From the IMG/VR virus record IMGVR_UViG_3300008108_000202: a stretch of DNA of 64,000 nucleotides; one strand, written 5' to 3'. A program made the position numbers and the translations under genes. Source of the DNA: an uncultured virus (IMG/VR IMGVR_UViG_3300008108_000202) (Duplodnaviria; Heunggongvirae; Uroviricota; Caudoviricetes). The notes under the pieces are model-generated. The model did not search any database. It was not told the DNA's origin and saw only the letters and a list, made by a program, of their open reading frames with translations. Positions 3,544 to 63,907 of this stretch are shown here, in pieces; within the stretch, counting starts at the first letter, position 1, and every line of letters begins with the position of its first letter.

Positions 3544-5310
3544 TTAATCAGTACCTTTAATTTTCTTAAGTATTGATTCAACCATAGTTTTTTTCTTCTT
3601 ACTTTGTATTGCTTCTGAAATTGTATTTTTAACAATTGACTCAAGTTGCATTCCTGGAGTTTTTTGTATTGTTTTCATATAATCTTTTAAACAAAACTTA
3701 TCAATACCAACTTTTGATCTTTTCTTATCGGTTGTTTGATAACATCTATATAATGACTTTAATTCATCTCTAATTCCAAATTCACCCTCAACAAAGTTTT
3801 TATCTTCATCACATTTTATAACGGTTTCTTTTAATTTAGTTAAAGTGTTTGAATCCAAACCTTCAAGATCCTTAAATTGTATAATTCTTTCAGATTTGAA
3901 TGCTCTATAATAAAGTTGTTTAACCGCACTTTTACAAGCCTTTCTTTTTACTTCAGGTCTTGTATCTGCCGATTTTGCTGTATTTATGATATTATCAACA
4001 TCAACTTTCTCTGACTCAGAATAAGATGCTTTCCATATTGGAGTTGTGTTTCCGTAATGTTTTTCATAAACACTTCCTCCATATTGTTCAAGACTTTTGA
4101 AAAATTCACCAACAGTAGTTTTTGTTCCTAACAACTCAGGTTTATCTAATGATGGTTCAACAAAAGTATAACCTTTTGATTCAACGAATTTTTTAACTTC
4201 AGGATTAATTACTACCTCATCTTTTTTTGGTGTTGGGGTAGGTGTAGGAGTTGTACCTTGTGGTTTTGTATCACTCATAGGATCCGATGAAGATTTTGGT
4301 GGCATTCTACTAATGTTTTGCTCAAACAATCTTAAGTTAAGAACTTTCTTAACAACGGATTCTGACATGGTTTCATAAGAATCATCAAATGTTGATTCTT
4401 CTTCTGTTGGTTGCCAATCACTCTTAGGATCTTTAATAAGTTTAATAATTGTTTTTTGATTATTATCTAAACCTGCAGTTAAATAACCAACCTCACCTTT
4501 TTTTGCTTTACCTTGTGGGTGTATTGGGTATAAGACAACATAGTAATCACCATTTTTAAAATCATTAACTAATTTTTGAATTCCTGATTCTGATGTTGTA
4601 TCAATTTCTTGTGGTGTCAATTCAACCTTTGATTCATTTTTATCGTATTTAATTACATATACAAACGTTTGAGTTTTTGGTATAAACTTTAATGCTCCCA
4701 AATTAGTTATTTGACCATTCTTCATTAAAGTTTTCCACCATTCTTTTTGTTCTTCAGGTCCAAATTTCAATCCACCACCAGGAGTTACAGGAGAAGAAGA
4801 ACAGATTGATTCAATCTCTTCTTTTGTTGCAGAAGTTTTACCTGTTTTTAATTTTAATGCGGACTCTGTATTTGACCCAAAGTATGAATCTTGTTTTGAT
4901 CCGAGACATCCTTGTAGTTTGTAAATTGATCCATTAACATTTGGACTTCCCTTTGAGGATCCAGGATCTTTACATCCTTTTACAAATGGCCCTGTTGTAC
5001 AATCATTGTATGTTTGACTTACAGGTGTTATTGTATCGTCAGTGTTTGAGGTTACTTCTTTTCTTTTAATATGATAACTTGTACTATTGTTTGCTTTACA
5101 CAAATAAGTTTTTTTATCGTATATTTTTTCACTTGCTTTGTTATAATTTTCTTCTGGTTGTCTAGACCAACCATCTGACGCTAATGCATTAAGATCGGAT
5201 TTACATTTACTAAAAGAGGGCTCTGTGGTTGGTTTACCACCTGGTTTACCACCATCTTTTTTTGGCTTACCACTTGGTTTACCTTCACTAATATATTTAA
5301 TTGGTTTCAT
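3544..5310 (-). CDS. Large hypothetical protein with peptidoglycan-binding-like motif
   Basis: 588 aa; LQGCLG..QDSYFGSNTESAL resembles PG_binding_1 core; PT-rich linker. Confidence 0.7.
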   Translation of the reverse strand: MKPIKYISEGKPSGKPKKDGGKPGGKPTTEPSFSKCKSDLNALASDGWSRQPEENYNKASEKIYDKKTYLCKANNSTSYHIKRKEVTSNTDDTITPVSQTYNDCTTGPFVKGCKDPGSSKGSPNVNGSIYKLQGCLGSKQDSYFGSNTESALKLKTGKTSATKEEIESICSSSPVTPGGGLKFGPEEQKEWWKTLMKNGQITNLGALKFIPKTQTFVYVIKYDKNESKVELTPQEIDTTSESGIQKLVNDFKNGDYYVVLYPIHPQGKAKKGEVGYLTAGLDNNQKTIIKLIKDPKSDWQPTEEESTFDDSYETMSESVVKKVLNLRLFEQNISRMPPKSSSDPMSDTKPQGTTPTPTPTPKKDEVVINPEVKKFVESKGYTFVEPSLDKPELLGTKTTVGEFFKSLEQYGGSVYEKHYGNTTPIWKASYSESEKVDVDNIINTAKSADTRPEVKRKACKSAVKQLYYRAFKSERIIQFKDLEGLDSNTLTKLKETVIKCDEDKNFVEGEFGIRDELKSLYRCYQTTDKKRSKVGIDKFCLKDYMKTIQKTPGMQLESIVKNTISEAIQSKKKKTMVESILKKIKGTD

Positions 5311-35449: not shown

Positions 35450-36215
35450 ATTTACATTTGTTAACCCCATCAGTGGGGATTTTTGTTAATAACTTTATGT
35501 TAAAAAACTTGTTTTTGTCAAAATGTCAGTCGTGAGTTAAACACGACACAATCCCCTCACAGGGTTTTAACCTTCCCACTCCTTCCCACAATCAACCAAA
35601 AAAACCTGACAAATTGTACCTGACAATATGTCTGGCGTCAATTTTTCCCCTCTGATGGGGTCAATAAGACCACTTTTTTAACTATATATAAATTCCAGCA
35701 AAAAATATATAGTTATACCTGTAGATCGGTGGACAGTCCTTTAGGACGTTAGGTTAATCTCTTCAACCCGACTAAAAGGAGGTTCAACCCCCACTTTATG
35801 TGGGTTATAGTGTCCCTCACAACATTTCTCCCTTCAATAATAAGACACCTAAACAACATACTAAATAGTTCCTTAAAACTGATTTATTTAAATAATCATT
35901 TATGATCCCCATGGTAAATCACAAACGAACAACATTATATGTTCTTACATATAATTCACCACAAAATAATGAAATTATATGTAAATGAATATAATATAGA
36001 ACAACTTGATCTGTTACTCTATTGTCTTCTGAATAAATGGGGGTAAGTAACGACCTTGTTCATAAGACGAGGGTAAATAACACCCCCTTCATTAAAGATG
36101 GGGAGAACGAAACGAAGTGGGGTGATTTAAAAAAAAGGGGGGATATAAGAGTATAGGATTAAATTATGAATGAGATCCGTAGTGAGTTTACGAACGGTAG
36201 GATGGAATGAATGAT
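35450..36215. other. Long non-coding region, candidate replication origin/packaging region
   Basis: No long ORF; DnaA-box-like 9-mer, TGACA/TGTCA and TGGGG motifs, hairpins. Confidence 0.4.
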
Positions 36216-36216
36216 T

Positions 36217-37050
36217 TTATCCTATAGTCTTCTTATCTATTAACGATAATCTTTCAGTCTCTATATCACAATATTCTTTGGATAACTCTGAACCAATATA
36301 GTTTCTGTTTGTTAGTATACACATTTTTGATGTTGTACCACTTCCCATAAACGGATCATATATTAAATCATTTTCATTTGACCAACTCATTATATGTCTT
36401 CTTACCAATTCTTCAGGGAATATTGCTGGATGTTTAAATGCAATCTTATCATTTGTTGTATTACCACCACCCACATAGAAATCCCATATATTATATTCAG
36501 GAACCATCTCCTTAACAAAGTAATCATTCTCATTAAACTCTCCGTCTTGATTTCTTGAGAACTTTTTCTTTCTATATGTTCTCTTATCATTACATTTATT
36601 ACTTCTCTCCCTGAGTTCTATATTGGTTGTCTTTGGTTTACCTTTTGAGAACACAAACATATACTCAAACATCTGTTGATATCTTGTCCCCGAATTTGGC
36701 ATAGGATTTAATTTCCTATAGATCATTGTGTCGTGAACGTTAAACCCAATCTCCTTAAAATATAATGCTTGCCTAAATGAATTTAATGTTTCGGATCCAT
36801 TAACCATGCTGTCATTTACAACCCACACAACAACTCCACCTTTTTTGGTAACCCTATATAATTCTGTTGATATTTGCTCAAACGGAAATGAATACCCATT
36901 GTGATCATCACTTATTTTTCCCACCCTGTTGTTGTAATTTCTGATTTCATCATATGGTGGCGAAGTTATTGTTAGATCAATAAAATCATTTGGCATTGAT
37001 TTCATTGTAGTTAAACAACTCTCATTATATGTCTTATTGATCTCCATCAT
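36217..37050 (-). CDS. DNA methyltransferase, N4-C/N6-A beta class
   Basis: TSPPY before HPAIFP..DPFMGSGTT; no cognate REase adjacent. Confidence 0.92.
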   Translation of the reverse strand: MMEINKTYNESCLTTMKSMPNDFIDLTITSPPYDEIRNYNNRVGKISDDHNGYSFPFEQISTELYRVTKKGGVVVWVVNDSMVNGSETLNSFRQALYFKEIGFNVHDTMIYRKLNPMPNSGTRYQQMFEYMFVFSKGKPKTTNIELRERSNKCNDKRTYRKKKFSRNQDGEFNENDYFVKEMVPEYNIWDFYVGGGNTTNDKIAFKHPAIFPEELVRRHIMSWSNENDLIYDPFMGSGTTSKMCILTNRNYIGSELSKEYCDIETERLSLIDKKTIG

Positions 37051-37135
37051 TTAATATTTTTTATTGCAATCAGGTCAACCTTATTCTTGTCTTGTGGTAA
37101 GGTACTTCACATATACCCAACCGTTATAAGTAATA

Positions 37136-37327
37136 TTATTTTTGTTCAGATATATTTAATATTGATGAACTATGCTGTTCTCCACAATCAGAACACCAAC
37201 AAACTTGTATTATCATAGACACTTTCCCAAAGTTTTTATCTTTATAAAAATCATTACCACTTTCAATATTTGTCTCTATCATATTAGAAACAACATTTGT
37301 ACTTTTACATTTTTTACATTCAAACAT
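37136..37327 (-). CDS. Small zinc-ribbon protein (cassette 1)
   Basis: CKKC...CSDC. Confidence 0.7.
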   Translation of the reverse strand: MFECKKCKSTNVVSNMIETNIESGNDFYKDKNFGKVSMIIQVCWCSDCGEQHSSSILNISEQK

Positions 37328-37432
37328 AGTTCATTTTTTAATTGTTAAACAAAAATAATACAACTTATAACAAATGATAAACAACATTAAAACGATTGTT
37401 TATCATCGGACGTTATAAACAATAAAAAATTA

Positions 37433-37663
37433 TTATTGTTCTTCATCTACAATAAACCAATTTCCGTTAAAAATATTTAGTTCTCCGTTAGCGTTCTTTT
37501 GGTTAATTATCTCATACCAGTTTGTTGGTAAGTTATCTATAATTTCAATCTCAAACTCAATATTTTCTTTATCAAGCATTAACACTTTATAGTTACCAAA
37601 ATCGTAATTGTACAATAGTGTTCCAATCTCCAATTGATTTATTGTTTCTAATTTCTGTTTCAT
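37433..37663 (-). CDS. Hypothetical protein (cassette 2)
   Basis: 76-aa ORF. Confidence 0.7.
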   Translation of the reverse strand: MKQKLETINQLEIGTLLYNYDFGNYKVLMLDKENIEFEIEIIDNLPTNWYEIINQKNANGELNIFNGNWFIVDEEQ

Positions 37664-37724
37664 AATTTTTTACATGTTTATAACAACAAATATACAAAAA
37701 AAATTCTAATACTATTATAGTTTA

Positions 37725-38180
37725 TTAAATAGTTTGGTGATAATATTTTATATAATAGTTAATAACCATATCATATATTTCTGAAATTACCTCATCAGAT
37801 AATTCGTCGTATCCCATATATCGTCCAGCTGTAACTTGTTCCCGTTCCCGTCCACCATAATAATATACTGAAACATAATGAGAAAATAACCCTTCTATTT
37901 GACTAAGTGTTTCATCAGTATCTGTTAATACTATTGGGGTTTCGTACATATCATATAGAATTAAAATGTTATTATCATCGTGATTATATACAAGATCACT
38001 TATAATTTTTATTTTTAATCGTTTGGTTAGTGAATCATCCCCTATTATATCAAGTATTCTTTTTATCCCACCGAAGATCTTTGTTGCGGTAATGAATCCA
38101 GCATCATTAATGGTTTTTATTACCATCCTTTGTTTCGGATTGGTTTCTTCCCTTAATATATGTCTAATTCTTTCTTTCAT
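37725..38180 (-). CDS. MKERIRHILREE leader + GG-helix protein
   Basis: Shared leader and IFGGIK. Confidence 0.8.
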   Translation of the reverse strand: MKERIRHILREETNPKQRMVIKTINDAGFITATKIFGGIKRILDIIGDDSLTKRLKIKIISDLVYNHDDNNILILYDMYETPIVLTDTDETLSQIEGLFSHYVSVYYYGGREREQVTAGRYMGYDELSDEVISEIYDMVINYYIKYYHQTI

Positions 38181-38181
38181 A

Positions 38182-38643
38182 TTATCCCATCGTTTCTAAA
38201 TCTCCACCATCAGTTGTAAAGATGTTTTTTGGGACTATCCCATATTGATTTTTGATCCATATTTTAATCCACAGTAAAATATAGAAATGATCACCATTTT
38301 CCATAGTGTTTATTACCTTTAAAATATCATTGGACATAAATAATGTTCCACCATCATTCATTTCCTCCGTTAGGGCAAAATAGTTTAATCCTTCCCTGAA
38401 TCTCAATAATGTATACTCATCATCATATTCATCAACAAAAATTATCTCATCCATATCATTAAACAAATTGAGAAATTTCATTGAGTTTTCTACCCCCAAT
38501 ATTCTAATCAAATTATTAACCCCTCCTACCGAACTTATTGCTTGGGAAAGTCCCGCACCTCTAATAATGGAGATGATCCTTGATCTGAGTCTTTCTTCTC
38601 TGCTTTGCTCTTCCCTTAATATATGTCTAATTCTTTCTTTCAT
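38182..38643 (-). CDS. MKERIRHILREE leader + GG-helix protein
   Basis: Shared leader and VGGVNN. Confidence 0.8.
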   Translation of the reverse strand: MKERIRHILREEQSREERLRSRIISIIRGAGLSQAISSVGGVNNLIRILGVENSMKFLNLFNDMDEIIFVDEYDDEYTLLRFREGLNYFALTEEMNDGGTLFMSNDILKVINTMENGDHFYILLWIKIWIKNQYGIVPKNIFTTDGGDLETMG

Positions 38644-39080
38644 TATTTAATTTCATTTAAATGCTTTGACGTTGTGGAGATAATCATAAAATCTTTTAAA
38701 TTATATTCCTGACCCAACCAATCATATAAGTAATTTATTGTATCATTATTGTTTAATTCAAAATCATCTCTTAGAACATCCACTATTTTAGCATCATCAA
38801 TATAAAGTCTATTTACTATATAACTAAAAACCATCAGGTTATGGTTTTCTTTATATGGATATTTATACAATCCAGATATTTCTTCTGATTCTATTGGTGT
38901 CATTCCATTAAATAGATGTAGGTAATCCATTGGTGTTTCAATATTCATTATTTTTTTAAAATTATCAAAACCACCTACCATTTGAAATGTCTTTTCCACC
39001 CCAAGATCTTTGATCATAGTCATAACTCTATTTTGAATTGATCTTTCTTCTCTTAATATATGTCTAATTCTTTCTTTCAT
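38643..39080 (-). CDS. MKERIRHILREE leader + GG-helix protein
   Basis: Shared leader and VGGFDN. Confidence 0.8.
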   Translation of the reverse strand: MKERIRHILREERSIQNRVMTMIKDLGVEKTFQMVGGFDNFKKIMNIETPMDYLHLFNGMTPIESEEISGLYKYPYKENHNLMVFSYIVNRLYIDDAKIVDVLRDDFELNNNDTINYLYDWLGQEYNLKDFMIISTTSKHLNEIK

Positions 39081-39083
39081 CTT

Positions 39084-39536
39084 TTAATCCGCATATATTA
39101 TATCCCCGCTTGGTAAAAAATAGAGTGCCCTTCGGATATCCCCTTTAATGTTATATTCATTTTTGAACCATAGCTTTATTGTTGATGATCTATCTGATTC
39201 GTTTCTATAAAAATGACTAACCCCCTCAAGTATTCTACTACCCACATATAATTTTATATACCCATAATCTTCTTCATTAAGAACAAATTGAATGACTCCT
39301 TCATCTGTTTTATAAAATATATCATTACCATCAATTTCAATATTTAATCCTTTGAATATTTTCAAGAATTGTATTGGATTATGTATATCTAAAAACCTGA
39401 ACAGATTATCCATACCTCCCACCAAATTCGCCGCAAATTTTGTCCCCTCATTTTTTATCATTGATAATAACTTCTCTTTGAAAACTTCCTTTCTTTCTTC
39501 CCTTAATATTCTTCTTATGGATTCTTGTAGGTTCAT
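39084..39536 (-). CDS. MNLQESIRRILREE leader + GG-helix protein
   Basis: Shared leader and VGGMDN. Confidence 0.8.
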   Translation of the reverse strand: MNLQESIRRILREERKEVFKEKLLSMIKNEGTKFAANLVGGMDNLFRFLDIHNPIQFLKIFKGLNIEIDGNDIFYKTDEGVIQFVLNEEDYGYIKLYVGSRILEGVSHFYRNESDRSSTIKLWFKNEYNIKGDIRRALYFLPSGDIIYAD

Positions 39537-39541
39537 TTTTT

Positions 39542-39856
39542 TTAATGATATAATTTATATAATTGTTTAATTTTACCCTCAAGTACGTTGGAAACTTTTT
39601 TTACAAATTCTATCTCTTCTTGTTCTGGTAAATCTTCCCATCCCAATTCATATTCATTCCACATAATTGCCTCCACGGCTCTTAAAGTTAATTCATATTT
39701 AAATTGTTCATAACTTTCTGTTTCACCATATACTTGTTCGGCGTTTACTGGAAGTAACCTACTAACCTGATCAATATCAATTCTTCTACGAAAGAATTTT
39801 GATTCATTCAATAGTTCTTCTTTTAATATTCTTCTTATGTTCTCTTGTAGGTTCAT
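39542..39856 (-). CDS. MNLQE leader + RR family protein
   Basis: SKFFRRR. Confidence 0.8.
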   Translation of the reverse strand: MNLQENIRRILKEELLNESKFFRRRIDIDQVSRLLPVNAEQVYGETESYEQFKYELTLRAVEAIMWNEYELGWEDLPEQEEIEFVKKVSNVLEGKIKQLYKLYH

Positions 39857-39857
39857 A

Positions 39858-40274
39858 TTAACACCATACTGATGATACTTTTATGTCGTTTCCTCTAACT
39901 ATTCCTTTTCCTAATTCATAAACCATATCTCTAATTTTTTCTTCTAAATCAATTTCTATACTTCTGTTGATCCACGCATCTAAATTGTTTGGGTCACGTA
40001 ATGGAATATTAACAAGAGTTCTAATTGAATGAAACCATTTTGACACTACAAAGTTACATATTGGTTCATTTAAATCGTGTTTTAATATTGTATTAACAAT
40101 AAACATCATATCTTCCTGTGTTCCTTTTAATTCAAGTATTTTATGAACTTTTTCTAACGAACCTATTACATTTGATGCCCTTAAAAACCCATTGTTTTTT
40201 ACCAAATCTCTAACAACACTTTTAAGGGATCTTTCTTCCCTTAATACTCTTCTTATGGATTCTTGTAGGTTCAT
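39858..40274 (-). CDS. MNLQE leader + GG-helix-like protein
   Basis: Shared leader. Confidence 0.8.
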   Translation of the reverse strand: MNLQESIRRVLREERSLKSVVRDLVKNNGFLRASNVIGSLEKVHKILELKGTQEDMMFIVNTILKHDLNEPICNFVVSKWFHSIRTLVNIPLRDPNNLDAWINRSIEIDLEEKIRDMVYELGKGIVRGNDIKVSSVWC

Positions 40275-40745
40275 TTAAAATTTTTTTATTTTAGAGAGTA
40301 CGTTAATGATATTATCTAATTCTGATATAGATAGGTTTTTTAATTTTTCGGCTCCATCATAATAATTTTCCCAATCATACTCCCCCATGTCTTCATCATA
40401 ACCATATTGTTTGTATGTGTAAAATCCGGCAACATAAATATCAATTACTTCCGTAATATATTTAGAATAATCTGTGTTATTATGTCTTGTATTAACAAAA
40501 ATATCGTGGTCTCTAACATCAATATAATCCCCATTTTCTTCACCATATCTTTTCACAATCTCACTTATCAATTCTATCATTTCACTTTTAGTTATATTAT
40601 CTCCATATAGTTTTTTAAACTTACTATAATTCCCTACCGCTCTGATCGTATTTAATACCCCAAACTTATCAATCATGGTCTTTAATTTATCTGTGATTGA
40701 TGACTCTTCCTTTAATATTCTTCTTATGGATTCTTGTAGGTTCAT
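40275..40745 (-). CDS. MNLQE leader + GG-helix-like protein
   Basis: Shared leader; similar to 28473 and 37725 ORFs. Confidence 0.8.
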   Translation of the reverse strand: MNLQESIRRILKEESSITDKLKTMIDKFGVLNTIRAVGNYSKFKKLYGDNITKSEMIELISEIVKRYGEENGDYIDVRDHDIFVNTRHNNTDYSKYITEVIDIYVAGFYTYKQYGYDEDMGEYDWENYYDGAEKLKNLSISELDNIINVLSKIKKF

Positions 40746-40746
40746 A

Positions 40747-41145
40747 TTATTGTTTCGGTATCATTTTTAAATATGGTAGGGGTTTATTCATCATATAATA
40801 TGCTAACGCTCTGTGGTTTCCTTCATTTCCTACCGCTGGATAATCAAGTCCCCTTTTTTTAATGTCTCTAACAAGTTTTCTAATATAGGGGTCTTCCTTT
40901 GCGTTCTCAATATCCCACTCACCAAAAACAGAAAATAAATACTCCTCGTTTTCTTCAGGACTAATTAAAACATATTCATATAAATAATCTTCAGGACCCT
41001 CATCGTAATTATCTTCAAACATAACTTCTATATCTTGTTTTGTTTGTTCAGGTAATTCGTTAAATTCATATGATTCACCAACAACCCCTTTGAACTTATT
41101 GGTTTCCTCCCTTAATATTCTTCTTATGTTTTCTTGTAGGTTCAT
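40747..41145 (-). CDS. MNLQE leader + ParB/Srx-like domain
   Basis: DIKKRGLDYP...EGNHRALA. Confidence 0.7.
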   Translation of the reverse strand: MNLQENIRRILREETNKFKGVVGESYEFNELPEQTKQDIEVMFEDNYDEGPEDYLYEYVLISPEENEEYLFSVFGEWDIENAKEDPYIRKLVRDIKKRGLDYPAVGNEGNHRALAYYMMNKPLPYLKMIPKQ

Positions 41146-41747
41146 TTTGTATAATAAGTAATTATATTAATTGCATGTTTAACAACCATGCTACCCGCAA
41201 GGTTCCACATTTCATCCAGAATTGTGTCGTCACCTTTTATTACCTTTTGAAGTATTTTCTTGTTTAATCTAACAATGTTTTCTTCATTATGTTCTAAACC
41301 ATTTTCTTTTATGATTCTGTGAGATATTATGGGAATCATACTTCTTACATCTTGGATTGCCTGTTTAAACTCACTTTCGGAAGGTTTATTCAATTCTTCC
41401 CTTAATATTCTTCTTATGTTCTCTTGTAGGTTCTCAACTAATCTGTAACTAAATCTTGGTTTTTTTAATATTTTAGCAGCAATTAACCTATGGTAACCAT
41501 CTTCTAAACCTTTTTCATCATAAACCAAATCAGTTATCTTATCGGGGTTATTAATAAAGTGTTTTATTGTCTTTATGTTTTCATTCTTGTGGTCAGATAG
41601 TGAATCCCAATTATCAACAATATCTTGTAAAGTATAATCTTTTAAAGTATTAAACTTTGAATTTTTGTACTTACTAAATTCTTTATTAGTTGATTTAGTT
41701 TTTTTATCTTCCCTTAATATTCTTTTTATGTTCTCTTGTAGGTTCAT
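41142..41747 (-). CDS. Fusion of two leader modules; ParB/Srx-like N-domain
   Basis: EDGYHRLIAA; internal NLQENIRRILREE. Confidence 0.75.
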   Translation of the reverse strand: MNLQENIKRILREDKKTKSTNKEFSKYKNSKFNTLKDYTLQDIVDNWDSLSDHKNENIKTIKHFINNPDKITDLVYDEKGLEDGYHRLIAAKILKKPRFSYRLVENLQENIRRILREELNKPSESEFKQAIQDVRSMIPIISHRIIKENGLEHNEENIVRLNKKILQKVIKGDDTILDEMWNLAGSMVVKHAINIITYYTK

Positions 41748-41776
41748 AATTATAAATATCATATATTTATCTTTAT

Positions 41777-59562: not shown

Positions 59563-59982
59563 TTATTTTACTATAATATCATTCAAATGAATTGAACGAC
59601 CATCACACTCCGTTTTTACATATACGTAAGAAAATATGTTACGTTCAACAGGTGCGGAACTTAGGTACCAGTTACCGATTACAAAATTTCTTTTACCGTC
59701 ACCAAATGACATATTTTGTTGTATTGTAATTTTATTACCAATTCTATATTCCTGTTCAGTTACAGTTGATTTAAAATAAATCTCATTACTATCATCTAAC
59801 AATAGTTCATAGGATTCTCTACCATTACCAGTAATTAGTTCCCAGTCACTACTACCTATCACCATTAATTTTGGTAATTTATTTTCTTCTGAGGGGCATT
59901 CGTCATTTAAGAAATGAAAGTAATCACCTTTTTTAATTACTAAATCCTCTGTTTTTTTGTGTTTGTAGATAATTTTACTCAT
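59563..59982 (-). CDS. Hypothetical protein inserted between thyA halves
   Basis: 139-aa ORF, no recognisable nuclease motif. Confidence 0.7.
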   Translation of the reverse strand: MSKIIYKHKKTEDLVIKKGDYFHFLNDECPSEENKLPKLMVIGSSDWELITGNGRESYELLLDDSNEIYFKSTVTEQEYRIGNKITIQQNMSFGDGKRNFVIGNWYLSSAPVERNIFSYVYVKTECDGRSIHLNDIIVK

Positions 59983-60009
59983 AATTCCAATTTTTAAAAT
60001 TTTTGTTTT

Positions 60010-60714
60010 CTACTTAAAATTCTTTAAATAATCTTGATAAAGTTCATCATCAGTTCTATAATCAGTAACAGGTAAATCTGCTACATTCCACGCATTAACC
60101 ATCAAACGTCTTGAGTCTGGGTTTGTTTTAAGGTCGTGGATTAGGTTTGATATTTGGTCTATTGATTCAATATTCCATTTTAGCATCGGTCTTTCTGGGT
60201 GAGATGGGTCTACTATATCGCTGGTCTCCCATTTAATATTTAACCAATCTCGCCATTGCTTACCATATATTCTACCTAACTCACCCCACTTGTTAGCAAA
60301 CTCATTATCTGTTTTTATTTTGTTGATGAATTCTTCTTGTGTGTAAAGAGAATATTCTTCGTTAGTAAAAAACCCATCAAAAGATTCTTCTAATTTTAAC
60401 CATTTTCTACTAAAAGTACCTTCATCAGCATTTTTACAATAGTTCTTATAAGCATCACCATCCCAGATATGACAATTGTTATCAACTAAGTATTTGATAT
60501 TTGTATCACCACGTAAGAACCATAACAATTCTGTTACAATTCCTTTCCAATACATTTTCTTTGTTGTGAGTAAAGGAAATCCTTCTGACATCTTATGACG
60601 GATCTGCTTTCCGAATATGGATAGGGTTCCTGTACCAGTGCGATCATCCTTACGAACACCATTGTCTAGGATGTCTTGTAGGAGTGCTTGGTATTTTTTA
60701 TCTAGTGTGTTCAT
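60010..60714 (-). CDS. thyA: Thymidylate synthase, N-terminal half
   Basis: DRTGTGT, FPLLTTKK, ELLWFLRG, YGKQWR, NPDSRR..NAWN. Confidence 0.9.
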   Translation of the reverse strand: MNTLDKKYQALLQDILDNGVRKDDRTGTGTLSIFGKQIRHKMSEGFPLLTTKKMYWKGIVTELLWFLRGDTNIKYLVDNNCHIWDGDAYKNYCKNADEGTFSRKWLKLEESFDGFFTNEEYSLYTQEEFINKIKTDNEFANKWGELGRIYGKQWRDWLNIKWETSDIVDPSHPERPMLKWNIESIDQISNLIHDLKTNPDSRRLMVNAWNVADLPVTDYRTDDELYQDYLKNFK

Positions 60715-60937
60715 TCAATATTCCTTTTAATCGTTTAATTTCCTCAATTACATCATCACCCAATTCAATCTTGGACATCATTGATAAGTCCACAACTTGT
60801 GAGTACAACAGATCAATTAGTTCCTGTTGTGTTTTGATTATTTCTTGTTCATTCATACCATTATCCATAGGTTTCATACATTCTCCTGTACAACTATCAC
60901 CGCAGTTGTACATACATCCATTTGTTCCTTTATTCAT
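60698..60937 (-). CDS. Hypothetical protein with Cys-rich N-terminus
   Basis: CMYNCGDSCTGEC. Confidence 0.65.
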   Translation of the reverse strand: MNKGTNGCMYNCGDSCTGECMKPMDNGMNEQEIIKTQQELIDLLYSQVVDLSMMSKIELGDDVIEEIKRLKGILNEHTR

Positions 60938-61229
60938 AACTTTCTATTTTTTTATTGTCTCTGTAAAATTCCTTAATAAGATTACACATTTCAGTTTGTT
61001 CTGTGATGTTTACTCTAGTCGGATTTCTATTTATTGATTCCAACCTCAATTGATAAACCTCATCCTCATTCAAATCACTCAATAAGTAGTAATCGGCCAA
61101 ACCAAAGTACAACGATATATCATATTCGTTTATATCAAAATGTATGTCATCAACATCAAATGTGAAATACTCATTAACTTTTGGTTTATTATTCCAAAAT
61201 ACTTCATTAACCTTAAATAACCAAATCAT
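60930..61229 (-). CDS. Hypothetical protein ending IESYE
   Basis: 99-aa ORF. Confidence 0.65.
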   Translation of the reverse strand: MIWLFKVNEVFWNNKPKVNEYFTFDVDDIHFDINEYDISLYFGLADYYLLSDLNEDEVYQLRLESINRNPTRVNITEQTEMCNLIKEFYRDNKKIESYE

Positions 61230-61243
61230 AATATTCTATTGTT

Positions 61244-61420
61244 TTAAAAATTTTTAATTAATTCTATTAAAGCCACTAATAATCCCCAAATTCCTACAAT
61301 CGAAACACCAATCAATATTATTACTAATATCTTTGGATTTATATACAATAATGTACCTACTGCTATTAAAATTAAGGTGGCAATTACCTTAGAATTTTTT
61401 ATTAAATCATTAATTTTCAT
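61244..61420 (-). CDS. Small two-TM membrane protein
   Basis: 58 aa, MKINDLIKNSKVIATLILIAVG... Confidence 0.55.
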   Translation of the reverse strand: MKINDLIKNSKVIATLILIAVGTLLYINPKILVIILIGVSIVGIWGLLVALIELIKNF

Positions 61421-61426
61421 AACTTT

Positions 61427-61627
61427 CTATTTTTTAAAGTAATTTATTCTGGATTTTGGAAGTGGGTGTTCATTACCTTTACTATCCCTTAGAAGATATA
61501 ATCCTCCTTTTGTTTTTTTAACAATAGTGAACACTTCATCAGAAGGATAACTTCTCCAAGGTTGAGACATTCTAAGATCCCGACCAAAATCTATTGTGGT
61601 TTCTTTTCCGATATATTCATCATTCAT
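61427..61627 (-). CDS. Hypothetical protein
   Basis: 66-aa ORF. Confidence 0.65.
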   Translation of the reverse strand: MNDEYIGKETTIDFGRDLRMSQPWRSYPSDEVFTIVKKTKGGLYLLRDSKGNEHPLPKSRINYFKK

Positions 61628-61633
61628 AACTTT

Positions 61634-61894
61634 CTATTGTTTTGGTGTTATTGTTATTGGATTATTTTTCCAAAATTCTTTACCCTCTATACTATTATTA
61701 AAGAACATAAAAAATTCTCCATACTTACTTTTTATTTTTTCCATTTTTTCAATGTTAATTTCATCACTATCTCTAAAACTTACAGAAATATTATTAAATG
61801 GATGTAACACCCCATCAAAATCTTTATATGTGTATCCTAATAGAGCAACTGGTAGTTTGCACTCACCTTTTATTTGTTGGTAAATTTTATTCAT
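61634..61894 (-). CDS. Hypothetical protein
   Basis: 86-aa ORF. Confidence 0.65.
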   Translation of the reverse strand: MNKIYQQIKGECKLPVALLGYTYKDFDGVLHPFNNISVSFRDSDEINIEKMEKIKSKYGEFFMFFNNSIEGKEFWKNNPITITPKQ

Positions 61895-62222
61895 AACTTT
61901 CTATAGTTTCGTTTTGATATTTTGTTGTGATTAGTTTGGTTGGTGCTTCATCTTCAACAACCTCCCTTATGTGGTCGTGTTCTAAATTACCAACCAATAA
62001 ATCATATCCTTTATTATCTTGTAACCATTTTGCTCTTTCTTCTAAACTCAACTCTCGTTCTTGAATTTTTAGTCCCCACTTTTCAGAGAACTCAGGATCC
62101 GTTTTACATTTGTTGATGAATTCTTCTTTAGTCCAAGCAGTATCTTTATACAGAATATGATTTTTTTCTCTATAACTCTCATACGCCTCATCAATAATCT
62201 GATTGTATCTTTCTTTACTCAT
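61887..62222 (-). CDS. ThyA-insertion-like family protein
   Basis: KEEFINKCKTDPEFSEKWGL..RELSLEER..PTKLIT. Confidence 0.8.
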   Translation of the reverse strand: MSKERYNQIIDEAYESYREKNHILYKDTAWTKEEFINKCKTDPEFSEKWGLKIQERELSLEERAKWLQDNKGYDLLVGNLEHDHIREVVEDEAPTKLITTKYQNETIESYE

Positions 62223-62403
62223 AACTTTCTATTTTATATCTTATATCTGTTCTATATTCATGTCTATCATAATAAGGCCAAATCATCTGACCTTCTTCAG
62301 TTTCTTTAAACATTATTTCTATTTGAAAAGAATCTAACTGATACATATCTTCAGTAAACCATTGATATCCATTGGAAAAATATCTTATTTGTTTCTTACT
62401 CAT
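62215..62403 (-). CDS. Hypothetical protein ending IESYE
   Basis: 62-aa ORF. Confidence 0.65.
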   Translation of the reverse strand: MSKKQIRYFSNGYQWFTEDMYQLDSFQIEIMFKETEEGQMIWPYYDRHEYRTDIRYKIESYE

Positions 62404-62809
62404 AACTTTCTATTGTTTCGTTGTTATATGTTAGTGTGATTAGTTTGGTTGGTATGTTATTTCTATCCCAAGATTCAACCGTCATGGGTGATACAAACTC
62501 AGAATCATACTTAGCCAATTTTCTTCTTTCTTCCAAACTCAACTCTCGTTCCTCAATCTTTAGTCCCCACTTTTCAGAGAACTCTGGATTGATTTTACAA
62601 ATATTAACGAACTCTTCTTTTGACATCTTTTTACCTGTACCAGGAATACAATCTTTCTCAAAATTCTTATACACCTCATCAATGATCTGATTGTATCTTT
62701 CTTTTGATGTGATGTATTTATTAACAATTCTCTCAATCCCGATTGAGGTGTACCCAAGTTTTTTGTCTTGATTAACCCAAGTCATAAAGTCCAATAATTC
62801 TTTATTCAT
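62396..62809 (-). CDS. ThyA-insertion-like family protein
   Basis: Paralog of 61887..62222. Confidence 0.8.
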   Translation of the reverse strand: MNKELLDFMTWVNQDKKLGYTSIGIERIVNKYITSKERYNQIIDEVYKNFEKDCIPGTGKKMSKEEFVNICKINPEFSEKWGLKIEERELSLEERRKLAKYDSEFVSPMTVESWDRNNIPTKLITLTYNNETIESYE

Positions 62810-63191
62810 AACTTTCCAGTGTTTCTTTGTTGTATGTTAGTACTGTTAGTTTGGTTGGGATGTTTTGTTGGTCTAACTCAAAATCTTTCCAATCAGATTT
62901 CATAAAAGGGTTATTACCATTTAAATGAATTTTAAACCACTCATTTCTTTCTTGGGTACTCAACTCTCTTTCCTCAATCTTTAATCCCCACCTTTCAGAG
63001 AACTCAAAACCTGACTTACATTTGTTGATGAACTCTTCTTGTGATAATAATCTAGGGGTTGCATGGTAAATAGGTCCTTCTACAACTATAATGTCTTTAT
63101 TGATTTCTAAATTAAGATTTAATCCTTTGGTTTTATCAATAAAATTCTTATAAACCTCATCAATAATCTGGTTGTATTTTTCGTTATTCAT
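62802..63191 (-). CDS. ThyA-insertion-like family protein
   Basis: Paralog of 61887..62222. Confidence 0.8.
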   Translation of the reverse strand: MNNEKYNQIIDEVYKNFIDKTKGLNLNLEINKDIIVVEGPIYHATPRLLSQEEFINKCKSGFEFSERWGLKIEERELSTQERNEWFKIHLNGNNPFMKSDWKDFELDQQNIPTKLTVLTYNKETLESYE

Positions 63192-63192
63192 A

Positions 63193-63555
63193 TTACCATC
63201 TATTTTGTTTCCATTTATCATCACCCTGATCTTCCAACTTTCTAACGATACTTAAGGCTTCTTGTGCAGTTGGTGTTTTAACATCAAAATCATAAGCAAT
63301 TCTACCGACAGAATAAACTAAATACTTGAGGTATTTTCTTTCTAATTCAAGTGTATGTTCAGAATCATAAGGTATTTTCATTGCAGAATTGTCATCAGAA
63401 AAATATAAAGACATATAAAAAGGGTTGACAATATCTAATAATTCCGTAAACCATTCTTTTGATACCCTTTCAAATGTTTTTCTACTGGCTGATGTAATCC
63501 AGGTATTGGTACTACTCCATTCCTCTTTTGTTAATGTTATTGATATTTTATTCAT
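63193..63555 (-). CDS. Hypothetical protein
   Basis: 120-aa ORF. Confidence 0.7.
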   Translation of the reverse strand: MNKISITLTKEEWSSTNTWITSASRKTFERVSKEWFTELLDIVNPFYMSLYFSDDNSAMKIPYDSEHTLELERKYLKYLVYSVGRIAYDFDVKTPTAQEALSIVRKLEDQGDDKWKQNRW

Positions 63556-63907
63556 ATGTCTCTATTGTTTCGTTGTTGTATGTTAGTGTGATTAGTTTGG
63601 TTGGACCAGGTAAGCTTTGTAATATAGTCATTAAATTAGATTCAGACAACTTATCTATATCTATTATCTTGGATTGATGTTTGGGATTGTAGTTTTGTTT
63701 TTCTAACCAATTATTATAAGCATGTGCTTGTTCCTTTAAGGATAACTCTCGTTCCTCAATTTTCAATTCCCACTTTTCAGAGAACTCAGGATCTGTTTTA
63801 CATTTGTTGATGAATTCTTCTTTAAGTAGAAAAGTAAGGTACATCACATGCTTATTTTCTTGATGGTACTTTTCATACACCTCATCAATAATCTGTTCTT
63901 TATTCAT
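63548..63907 (-). CDS. ThyA-insertion-like family protein
   Basis: Paralog of 61887..62222. Confidence 0.8.
   Translation of the reverse strand: MNKEQIIDEVYEKYHQENKHVMYLTFLLKEEFINKCKTDPEFSEKWELKIEERELSLKEQAHAYNNWLEKQNYNPKHQSKIIDIDKLSESNLMTILQSLPGPTKLITLTYNNETIETYE

Follow-up and report, generated by a model that had tools for sequence, protein, structure and literature searches.

Two small genes stand behind a native gene in this phage genome, and the locus raises the question of whether they are integron-like cassettes and, if so, whose recombination system they belong to. The window, the 64,000-nucleotide stretch of DNA analysed here, covers the opening 64 kb of a virus record of 126.6 kb. 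This record is 43% complete, and its sequence is present in lake and freshwater sequencing runs, with no RNA run among those listed. Positions 37123-37684 hold two integron-like cassettes flanking one complete attC-like hairpin, and the outer sites are half-sites. The features of the locus are as follows.

36217..37050, minus strand: N6/N4 DNA methyltransferase gene (PF01555, E 1e-48)
37051..37100, minus strand: remnant of a ~230-aa native gene, from about codon 72 (match to L314)
37093..37100, no strand: left junction, 8-nt microhomology common to an attC arm and the native gene
37093..37122, plus strand: left half-site, the right arm of a long attC type (complete copy at genome 83266-83351)
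37123..37371, plus strand: body of cassette 1, 249 nt from GTT to AAC, with 24-nt complementary ends
37136..37327, minus strand: cassette 1 gene, 63 aa, two cysteine pairs
37365..37418, plus strand: complete short attC-like site, 54 nt, with cores, unpaired spacers, stem, loop and fold
37365..37406, minus strand: 13-codon ORF within the central site that stops in the core immediately ahead of gene 1 and may have a role in translation
37412..37684, plus strand: body of cassette 2, 273 nt, with complementary ends and the same borders in L311
37433..37663, minus strand: cassette 2 gene, 76 aa (96% homologue in L311)
37685..37694, minus strand: right half-site, a 10-nt stub of an attC left arm that holds TATATTTG
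37725..38180, minus strand: native upstream gene of the MKERIRHILREE family, outside any cassette

All motif positions given in a first-pass annotation of the sequence (37123, 37363-37371, 37412 and 37675-37684) were re-located, and the palindrome that it described has arms of 11 bp each (37374-37384 and 37396-37406) in a site that measures 54 nt. Its claim that the ends of each cassette are exactly complementary was also correct, and the pairing extends further than claimed in both: 22 of 24 nt are complementary in cassette 1, and in cassette 2 a run of 10 nt is followed by a one-base gap and a mismatch and then by 11 more nt. As a chance level, of the 307 GTTA 9-mers on the plus strand of the window, 4 are matched by their exact reverse complement at a distance of 100-600 nt downstream; this drops to 2 of 297 when the present locus is masked. 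One antisense ORF per cassette had been proposed; the two ORFs, of 63 and 76 aa, are both encoded by the minus strand, the bottom (folding) strand of the central site.

In the central site, the unpaired spacers measure 2 nt and 5 nt, the 11-bp stem is perfect and contains no extrahelical base, and the 11-nt loop (37385-37395) is identical in Polaribacter phage P12002L. The z-scores of the fold were -4.3 for the top strand and -5.0 for the bottom strand, with 1 of 200 and 0 of 200 shuffles, respectively, folding as well. The outer sites were rightly described as half-sites, since neither folds alone (z +0.9 and +0.5 for the left region): the left one is an arm of a longer attC, identical in 33 of 33 nt, GTT included, to the copy at genome 83266-83351, and the right one is the 10-nt stub. 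Rfam gave nothing above chance at the window locus or at the two other arrays of the genome. An attI-like word near 37750 was treated as chance; it lies inside a gene and has no partner.

Homologues of the window cargo were sought in viral collections and the Atlas. For both genes, no usable family was found in Pfam, PHROG or the Atlas; with the cassette 1 gene, no Pfam family exceeded the cut-off and PHROG gave no match. The two cysteine pairs of the cassette 1 product likely form a zinc ribbon. Homologues of this gene at 81-89% were found in three other phage records, and a weak paralogue (E 0.008) lies in array C of the genome. Among the 100 longest cargo proteins tested (174 are listed), six match Pfam. 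The methyltransferase gene, which lies downstream of both cassette genes, was considered as a third cassette and ruled out: by reading, nine of nine homologues in other phages have no cassette border just upstream, and homologues sitting behind a native gene also contradict this assignment.

Two further features were observed around the unit. The gene run at 37725-41762 has common N-terminal openers, MKERIRHILREE or MNLQESIRRILREE, and a 35-nt exact repeat joins two of its genes. Just 3' of the methyltransferase gene, a 32-nt imperfect inverted repeat (36147-36231) is single-copy in the genome and unlike the att sites.

At the left end of the unit, the native-gene remnant matches L314 in 25 of 26 nt, and its peptide is nearly identical. 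The ~230-aa gene precedes the methyltransferase gene in five distinct relatives (L314, L316 with L317/L318, L320, L322 and L323), and in L316 and L320 it sits behind a TATATTTG box. Since only a short inner piece of this gene remains, overlapping the attC arm by 8 nt, an array piece appears to have taken the place of the first ~70 codons. The window unit is likely an orphan, a stranded array fragment of a phage-encoded integron-like system. The unit would have been trimmed at short direct repeats, namely the 8 nt seen on the left and, presumably, the TATATTTG box on the right. Its present reading order would be promoter, gene 2, gene 1 and methylase, and it is likely immobile unless a co-infecting phage supplies a recombinase.

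A promoter motif had been annotated at the right half-site, and TATATTTG is found there on the minus strand (37694-37687) with a predicted transcription start at about 37682, inside the GTTA core. TATATTTG is the Bacteroidota -7 element, for which the consensus and the 4-5 nt spacing were taken from PMC6847099. The strict -7 motif is strand-biased in the genome (25 vs 6), with an ATG after 4 nt in 5 of the 25; for the loose TAnnTTTG motif, the two strands are balanced (131 vs 130). A sigma-70 scan remained at chance level (16 found vs 16.9 expected). As judged from the motif, TATATTTG at the right half-site would act as a promoter.

We favour the right end as an arm stub fused to the native promoter within TATATTTG over a backward insertion behind this promoter. 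In such an insertion, the recombinase would have used exchange of the top strand to place a two-cassette circle at a GTT that closely follows the native promoter; most of a long site and the start of the native gene would then have been lost in a single deletion. This course of events is unlikely, albeit worth keeping in mind, since in L311 the own site of cassette 2 is the long type whose right arm forms the left half-site of the window, and in L316 the native promoter is followed by T-GTTA. The 10 nt after the right core are nevertheless the start of a common arm type, and the arrays of relatives too end in arm stubs (L033 and L076). Moreover, a -7 element is present in 5 of 52 unmatched distal array ends. 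Although arm types switch in some homologue pairs (see below) and, according to PMC5027507, loss of extrahelical bases favours top-strand recombination in IntI1 assays, it is the bottom strand that folds better in 224 of 229 cassettes. The fusion of an arm stub to the promoter is therefore the preferred origin of the right end.

Whether the cassettes move was assessed from homologues in other contexts. The first-pass annotation would have been contradicted by homologous genes that lack these boundaries together with a site that is invariant in relatives; instead, homologues of both genes keep the borders while their neighbours differ. The cassette 2 homologue in L311 retains both borders beside other neighbours, and so do the cassette 1 homologues in L332 and L333, whereas the borders are decayed in L334. 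One border-keeping homologue lies in an attI-bearing array. Among 11 homologue pairs in different contexts, the right-hand arm type is kept in 8 and changed in 3. Three of the 8 matches scored below the 0.8 similarity threshold and were assigned to the type by their first 10 nt. A check of relatives for different cassettes at this position had also been proposed; the position is identical in all three near-identical records compared, and swapping at this spot was not seen there. The search for an empty-site allele via the upstream gene found only near-identical records. In L334 (1500-1760), the cassette 1 homologue with decayed borders stands directly behind a TATATTTG box, apparently a second case of domestication. 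No clean excision joint was found in contigs. The joints in four runs have sides of 22-32 nt, most of them below 30, and probably come from other cassettes with common end frames.

The annotation had called for a search of the genome for more sites, and two further arrays and one attI-like site were found. Array B (65515-67310) has five sites and no enzyme. The array at 82489-83351 has four sites, and a further copy whose core is altered lies near 83660; five of the five bodies of this array have complementary ends. An attI-like site at genome 82337 starts this array, and next to it is a 15-codon recombinase stub, of which 14 of 15 residues match the N-terminus of the intact recombinases of relatives. 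The integrase reported as missing from the window is missing from more than the window: PF00589 had no match across the whole 126.6-kb record and no full recombinase was found by tblastn, in a record that lacks more than half of the genome. A CALIN has two or more attC sites close together and no integron integrase; for comparison, the window has one complete site and two halves. At least eight paralogous small genes were observed at 59860-63900 and at genome 64190-65475 and 71137-71511, one of them abutting array B.

In related phages, the sites are linked to a recombinase. A 25-nt piece of the central site occurs at at least 131 viral loci, many of them in long arrays. When 19 such records were searched for PF00589, nine matched and eight passed the cut-off, and in all eight the attC-like sites lie within a 3.4-kb locus around the recombinase gene. 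A recombinase is present in just three of six records that are at least 90% complete. A T4-like capsid gene was found in three of the five recombinase-bearing records tested, including a complete 310-kb genome.

A search by the enzyme only gave 80 loci, 52 close and 28 more distant; the 52 include near-duplicates (L157/159/160, L190/191 and L196-199), so that their counts are not independent. Upstream sites were detected in 41 of the 52 close loci, and 10 of the other 11 have less than 1.3 kb of upstream DNA; the enzyme of L180 has 8 kb upstream without a detected site. In the close loci, 192 sites lie upstream with the top strand opposite to the gene and none in the same sense, and the six downstream sites are all in one locus with a truncated gene. 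The 28 distant loci have two sites in total, both in a truncated clade member. An attI-like motif ahead of the start codon is present in 46 of 50 close loci vs 1 of 28 distant ones. Thus, the order in relatives is the recombinase gene, an attI-like site 50-60 nt before its start, and then the array, whose genes point towards the recombinase.

Arrays without an enzyme also exist. In G002 and G003 neither the enzyme nor the attI pattern was found, and P12002L has arrays without an enzyme of the phage clade. In G001 (L145, 1671-2456), an opposite-strand ORF of 261 aa, the start of which resembles a GIY-YIG endonuclease, interrupts the recombinase gene. From this split gene and the N-terminal stubs standing alone in L193 and L195-L199, it appears that the enzyme decays often.

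The phage enzyme has ~267 aa and carries PF13495 and PF00589. The catalytic residues R133, K158/K161, H217, R220, H243 and Y252 are invariant in nine aligned proteins. The I2 insertion of IntI is absent: between two patches the enzyme is ~42 residues shorter than Vibrio IntI, and KGxKxR is separated from HxxRH by 58-60 aa, compared with 106-107 in those IntI rows that could be parsed. Scores with TIGR02249 were 143-157 bits, below the cut-off of 265, and the best NCBIfam match was recomb_XerA_Arch (179-184 bits vs a cut-off of 220). Xer enzymes act on double-stranded dif sites. Enzymes without I2 are abundant: of the 8000 proteins that were scored, 6160 reached E<=1e-40.

A quick tree was built from 50 proteins; its long branches make the deep order unsure. 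The phage enzymes group together in this tree (support 97), and the group also takes in a single contig of 3 kb that belongs to a Bacilli bin. Nearest to this clade are the cultured Bacteroidota phages Ingeline and Freya (98), next outward are two Bacteroidota chromosomal enzymes (89), and the true IntIs stand apart (99). By reading, Freya_10 has the same layout, with an attI-like site, a complementary cassette and a hairpin with bottom-strand bias. In L324 (Ingeline, 4870-5000) and L325 (Freya_10, 3590-4147), an attI-like site was observed before a 35-37% identical recombinase. The Freya records vary in the length of DNA upstream of the recombinase, and the last 4.5 kb of Freya_1 has no match to the Freya_10 region. 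The phage enzyme is the putative cassette recombinase.

The ends of the cassettes obey common rules. In 91 of 146 cassettes, a set that includes segments where the detector missed a site, every one of positions 5-8 is complementary; across array junctions, this is the case in 6 of 239. In its circular form, the site has the more stable fold on the bottom strand in 224 of 229 cassettes, by a mean of -4.3 kcal/mol; for mobile-integron sites, -2.12 is reported in PMC5027507. A G.T pair occupies position 11 of the bottom strand in 175 of the 229 cassettes. Complementarity at positions 5-10 was the selection criterion for this set, so that its independent observations are limited to position 11 and the strand bias. 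The matching inner-stem position is the same G.T pair in 149 of 316 arms, many being out of register in this count. Most sites have spacers of 2 vs 5 nt. Because the site detector favours ungapped stems, the absence of extrahelical bases is noted for the site of the window. Among 217 non-redundant cassettes, the cargo is on the bottom strand in 184 and on the top strand in 6; the other 27 lack an ORF of 30 aa.

These rules bear on an explanation in which the hairpins are common repeats, either RNA signals or handles for homologous recombination, and small genes are swapped without site-specific recombination. The short site is indeed very abundant in lake runs, with a depth of 597 vs about 14 in X1 and 1061 vs about 5 in X12, and 30 of 316 arms hold a promoter element and arms can switch. 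However, the ends covary within a cassette and not across a junction, homologues diverge exactly at GTT and AAC, the sites are strongly linked to the recombinase and attI, and no Rfam family matches. We regard common repeats as a very improbable explanation, and site-specific exchange is retained.

The source of the cassettes was considered next to their mobility. The first-pass annotation had inferred that the phage acquires genes from a Bacteroidota cassette pool. A Bacteroidota host is plausible from the tree and the promoter consensus, but capture from a bacterial pool received no support. A 26-nt site pattern gave three matches at three mismatches in 401 Bacteroidota genomes, none with a TAAC core, and a gapped pattern, too strict to inform, gave no match in five bacterial genomes. 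The protein-based scan of bacterial genomes returns close word matches alone, and most of its 80 loci are unrelated recombinases. Chromosomal relatives without I2 have 372-385 aa and 41-48% identity and occur in Bacteroidota and Bacillota. In L231-L234 (Bacteroidota and Paenibacillaceae), such a recombinase is followed by a GTT-core site, and in the Paenibacillaceae loci cassette-like sites and top-strand genes come next. These Paenibacillaceae loci are possibly the bacterial counterpart of the phage system.

According to one alternative, a Bacteroidota pool supplies the cassettes and a recombinase of the host moves them, so that the phage enzyme would be incidental. Three similar sites near two chromosomal relatives without I2, complete phages with arrays and no enzyme, and the published integrase-less phage CALINs (PMC9892861) fit this explanation. 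We consider it improbable, since the short site was not found in the 401 sampled Bacteroidota genomes, two Bacillota loci have top-strand genes in an array that follows the enzyme, and the phage enzymes make up a separate clade (support 97) in which the attI motif is fixed and the arrays lie on one side. From the absence of the short site in these genomes and the differing chromosomal loci, we favour a phage-held cassette pool with Bacteroidota ancestry; as it rests on one site type and sampled genomes, this leaves room for exchange with hosts.

The phage system resembles integrons in many respects. The enzyme has a Phage_int_SAM_4 N-domain and attI near the 5' end of its gene, tandem cassettes are bounded by GTT and AAC with complementary cores within each cassette, and the hairpin sites have a bottom-strand bias, the cassettes mostly travelling with the site on their top-strand right side. 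In contrast to integrons, the enzyme lacks I2, the site of the window has no extrahelical base and spacers of 2 vs 5 nt, the end pairing runs past position 11, and the cargo is on the bottom strand, facing the enzyme, where integron cassette genes occupy the top strand and are transcribed from Pc near attI. Thus, the system is integron-like by layout and differs from integrons in I2, extrahelical bases and cargo strand, which makes it a variant of integrons.

Qi et al. 2023 described 17 phage CALINs, and IntI1 recombined five of six sites; the exception was P12002L_attC1 (PMC9892861). P12002L_attC1 has an 11-nt loop identical to that of the window site and, unlike the perfect stem of that site, one extra base; P12002L carries methylase cargo on the bottom strand. 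One negative on one site is a weak argument, and a second P12002L site did recombine. Those CALINs are alike in being integrase-less cassette clusters in lytic phages with methylase cargo. They differ in that, as far as the text of PMC9892861 was available, complete integrons occur in temperate phages alone, the sites are treated as IntI substrates, and a phage-encoded enzyme without I2, such an attI or reversed cargo is not mentioned. The nearest enzymes are the "integron-like" simple tyrosine recombinases (Smyshlyaev 2021, PMC8138268) and XerA/XerD; in the text compared on that subgroup, neither cassette arrays nor a phage clade are described. Acquisition of the I2 helix is considered to have given integron integrases their capacity for single-strand recombination, with the lack of intermediates a stated limit of that work (PMC7790495). 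In the literature compared, which also takes in PMC9024848 and PMC8618304, no description of a phage-encoded I2-less integron with reversed cargo was found.

Taken together, the two bottom-strand-gene cassettes are probably a stranded fragment of the phage group's own integron-like system, which would be run by a small tyrosine recombinase without I2. In this system, the bottom strand would fold and both ends of a cassette would pair, the recombinase would exchange one strand at G|TT, replication would resolve the product, and the cassette circle would enter attI. We infer single-strand exchange with replicative resolution from the covarying ends, which need pairing in the folded strand, and from the differing spacer sequences of attI and attC; by our own reasoning, the concatemer replication of the phage could tolerate a second exchange. 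The strand choice would come from the position-11 G.T wobble of the boxes and a 3-4-nt spacer bulge, not from flipped-out bases. A strict one-strand model is at odds with the three of 11 homologue pairs whose right arm type differs. Since the cargo follows the main transcription direction of the phage, expression would be expected from distal promoters or from the -7 elements built into some arms.

As a broader reading, we lean slightly towards Bacteroidota phages running their own sister system to integrons, in which the I2-less recombinase would exchange folded single-stranded, pseudo-symmetric sites. The pseudo-symmetry would consist of the G.T mark on both boxes, the bulged spacer and an 11-nt loop that is the same in the shortest site and in a 29-nt empty cassette. 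If true, this would be an extant case of recombination between hairpins by an enzyme that lacks the insertion credited with making it possible. It would also hint that a minimal, dumbbell-shaped circle grows into a cassette when its loop is filled, and it would mean a supply of hundreds of small genes to large phages, seeded behind native promoters as here. An abundant I2-less enzyme tied to hairpin arrays makes the origin of single-strand recombination testable, and the cultured phage with the same layout is Polaribacter phage Freya. The phage system could explain the lone negative in the published phage attC panel, and large phages may acquire their many small unknown genes through it. The locus in the window represents an end state that can seldom be read: two cassettes have become fixed downstream of a native promoter, and their left junction is located to within 8 nt.

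The 29-nt empty cassette recurs in L019 (near 2545-2573), L150, L168, L177 and others. Its middle is the loop of the 54-nt site, and the two together would form a dumbbell-shaped minimal circle. Unrelated cargo genes were also found to use one end frame, in the window at 37123-37146 and 37348-37371 and in the genome at 65956-66215 and 67046-67263; in this common frame the ORFs end in SEQK or SKQK and have the same leader. Different ORFs in one common end frame may bear on how cassettes are made.
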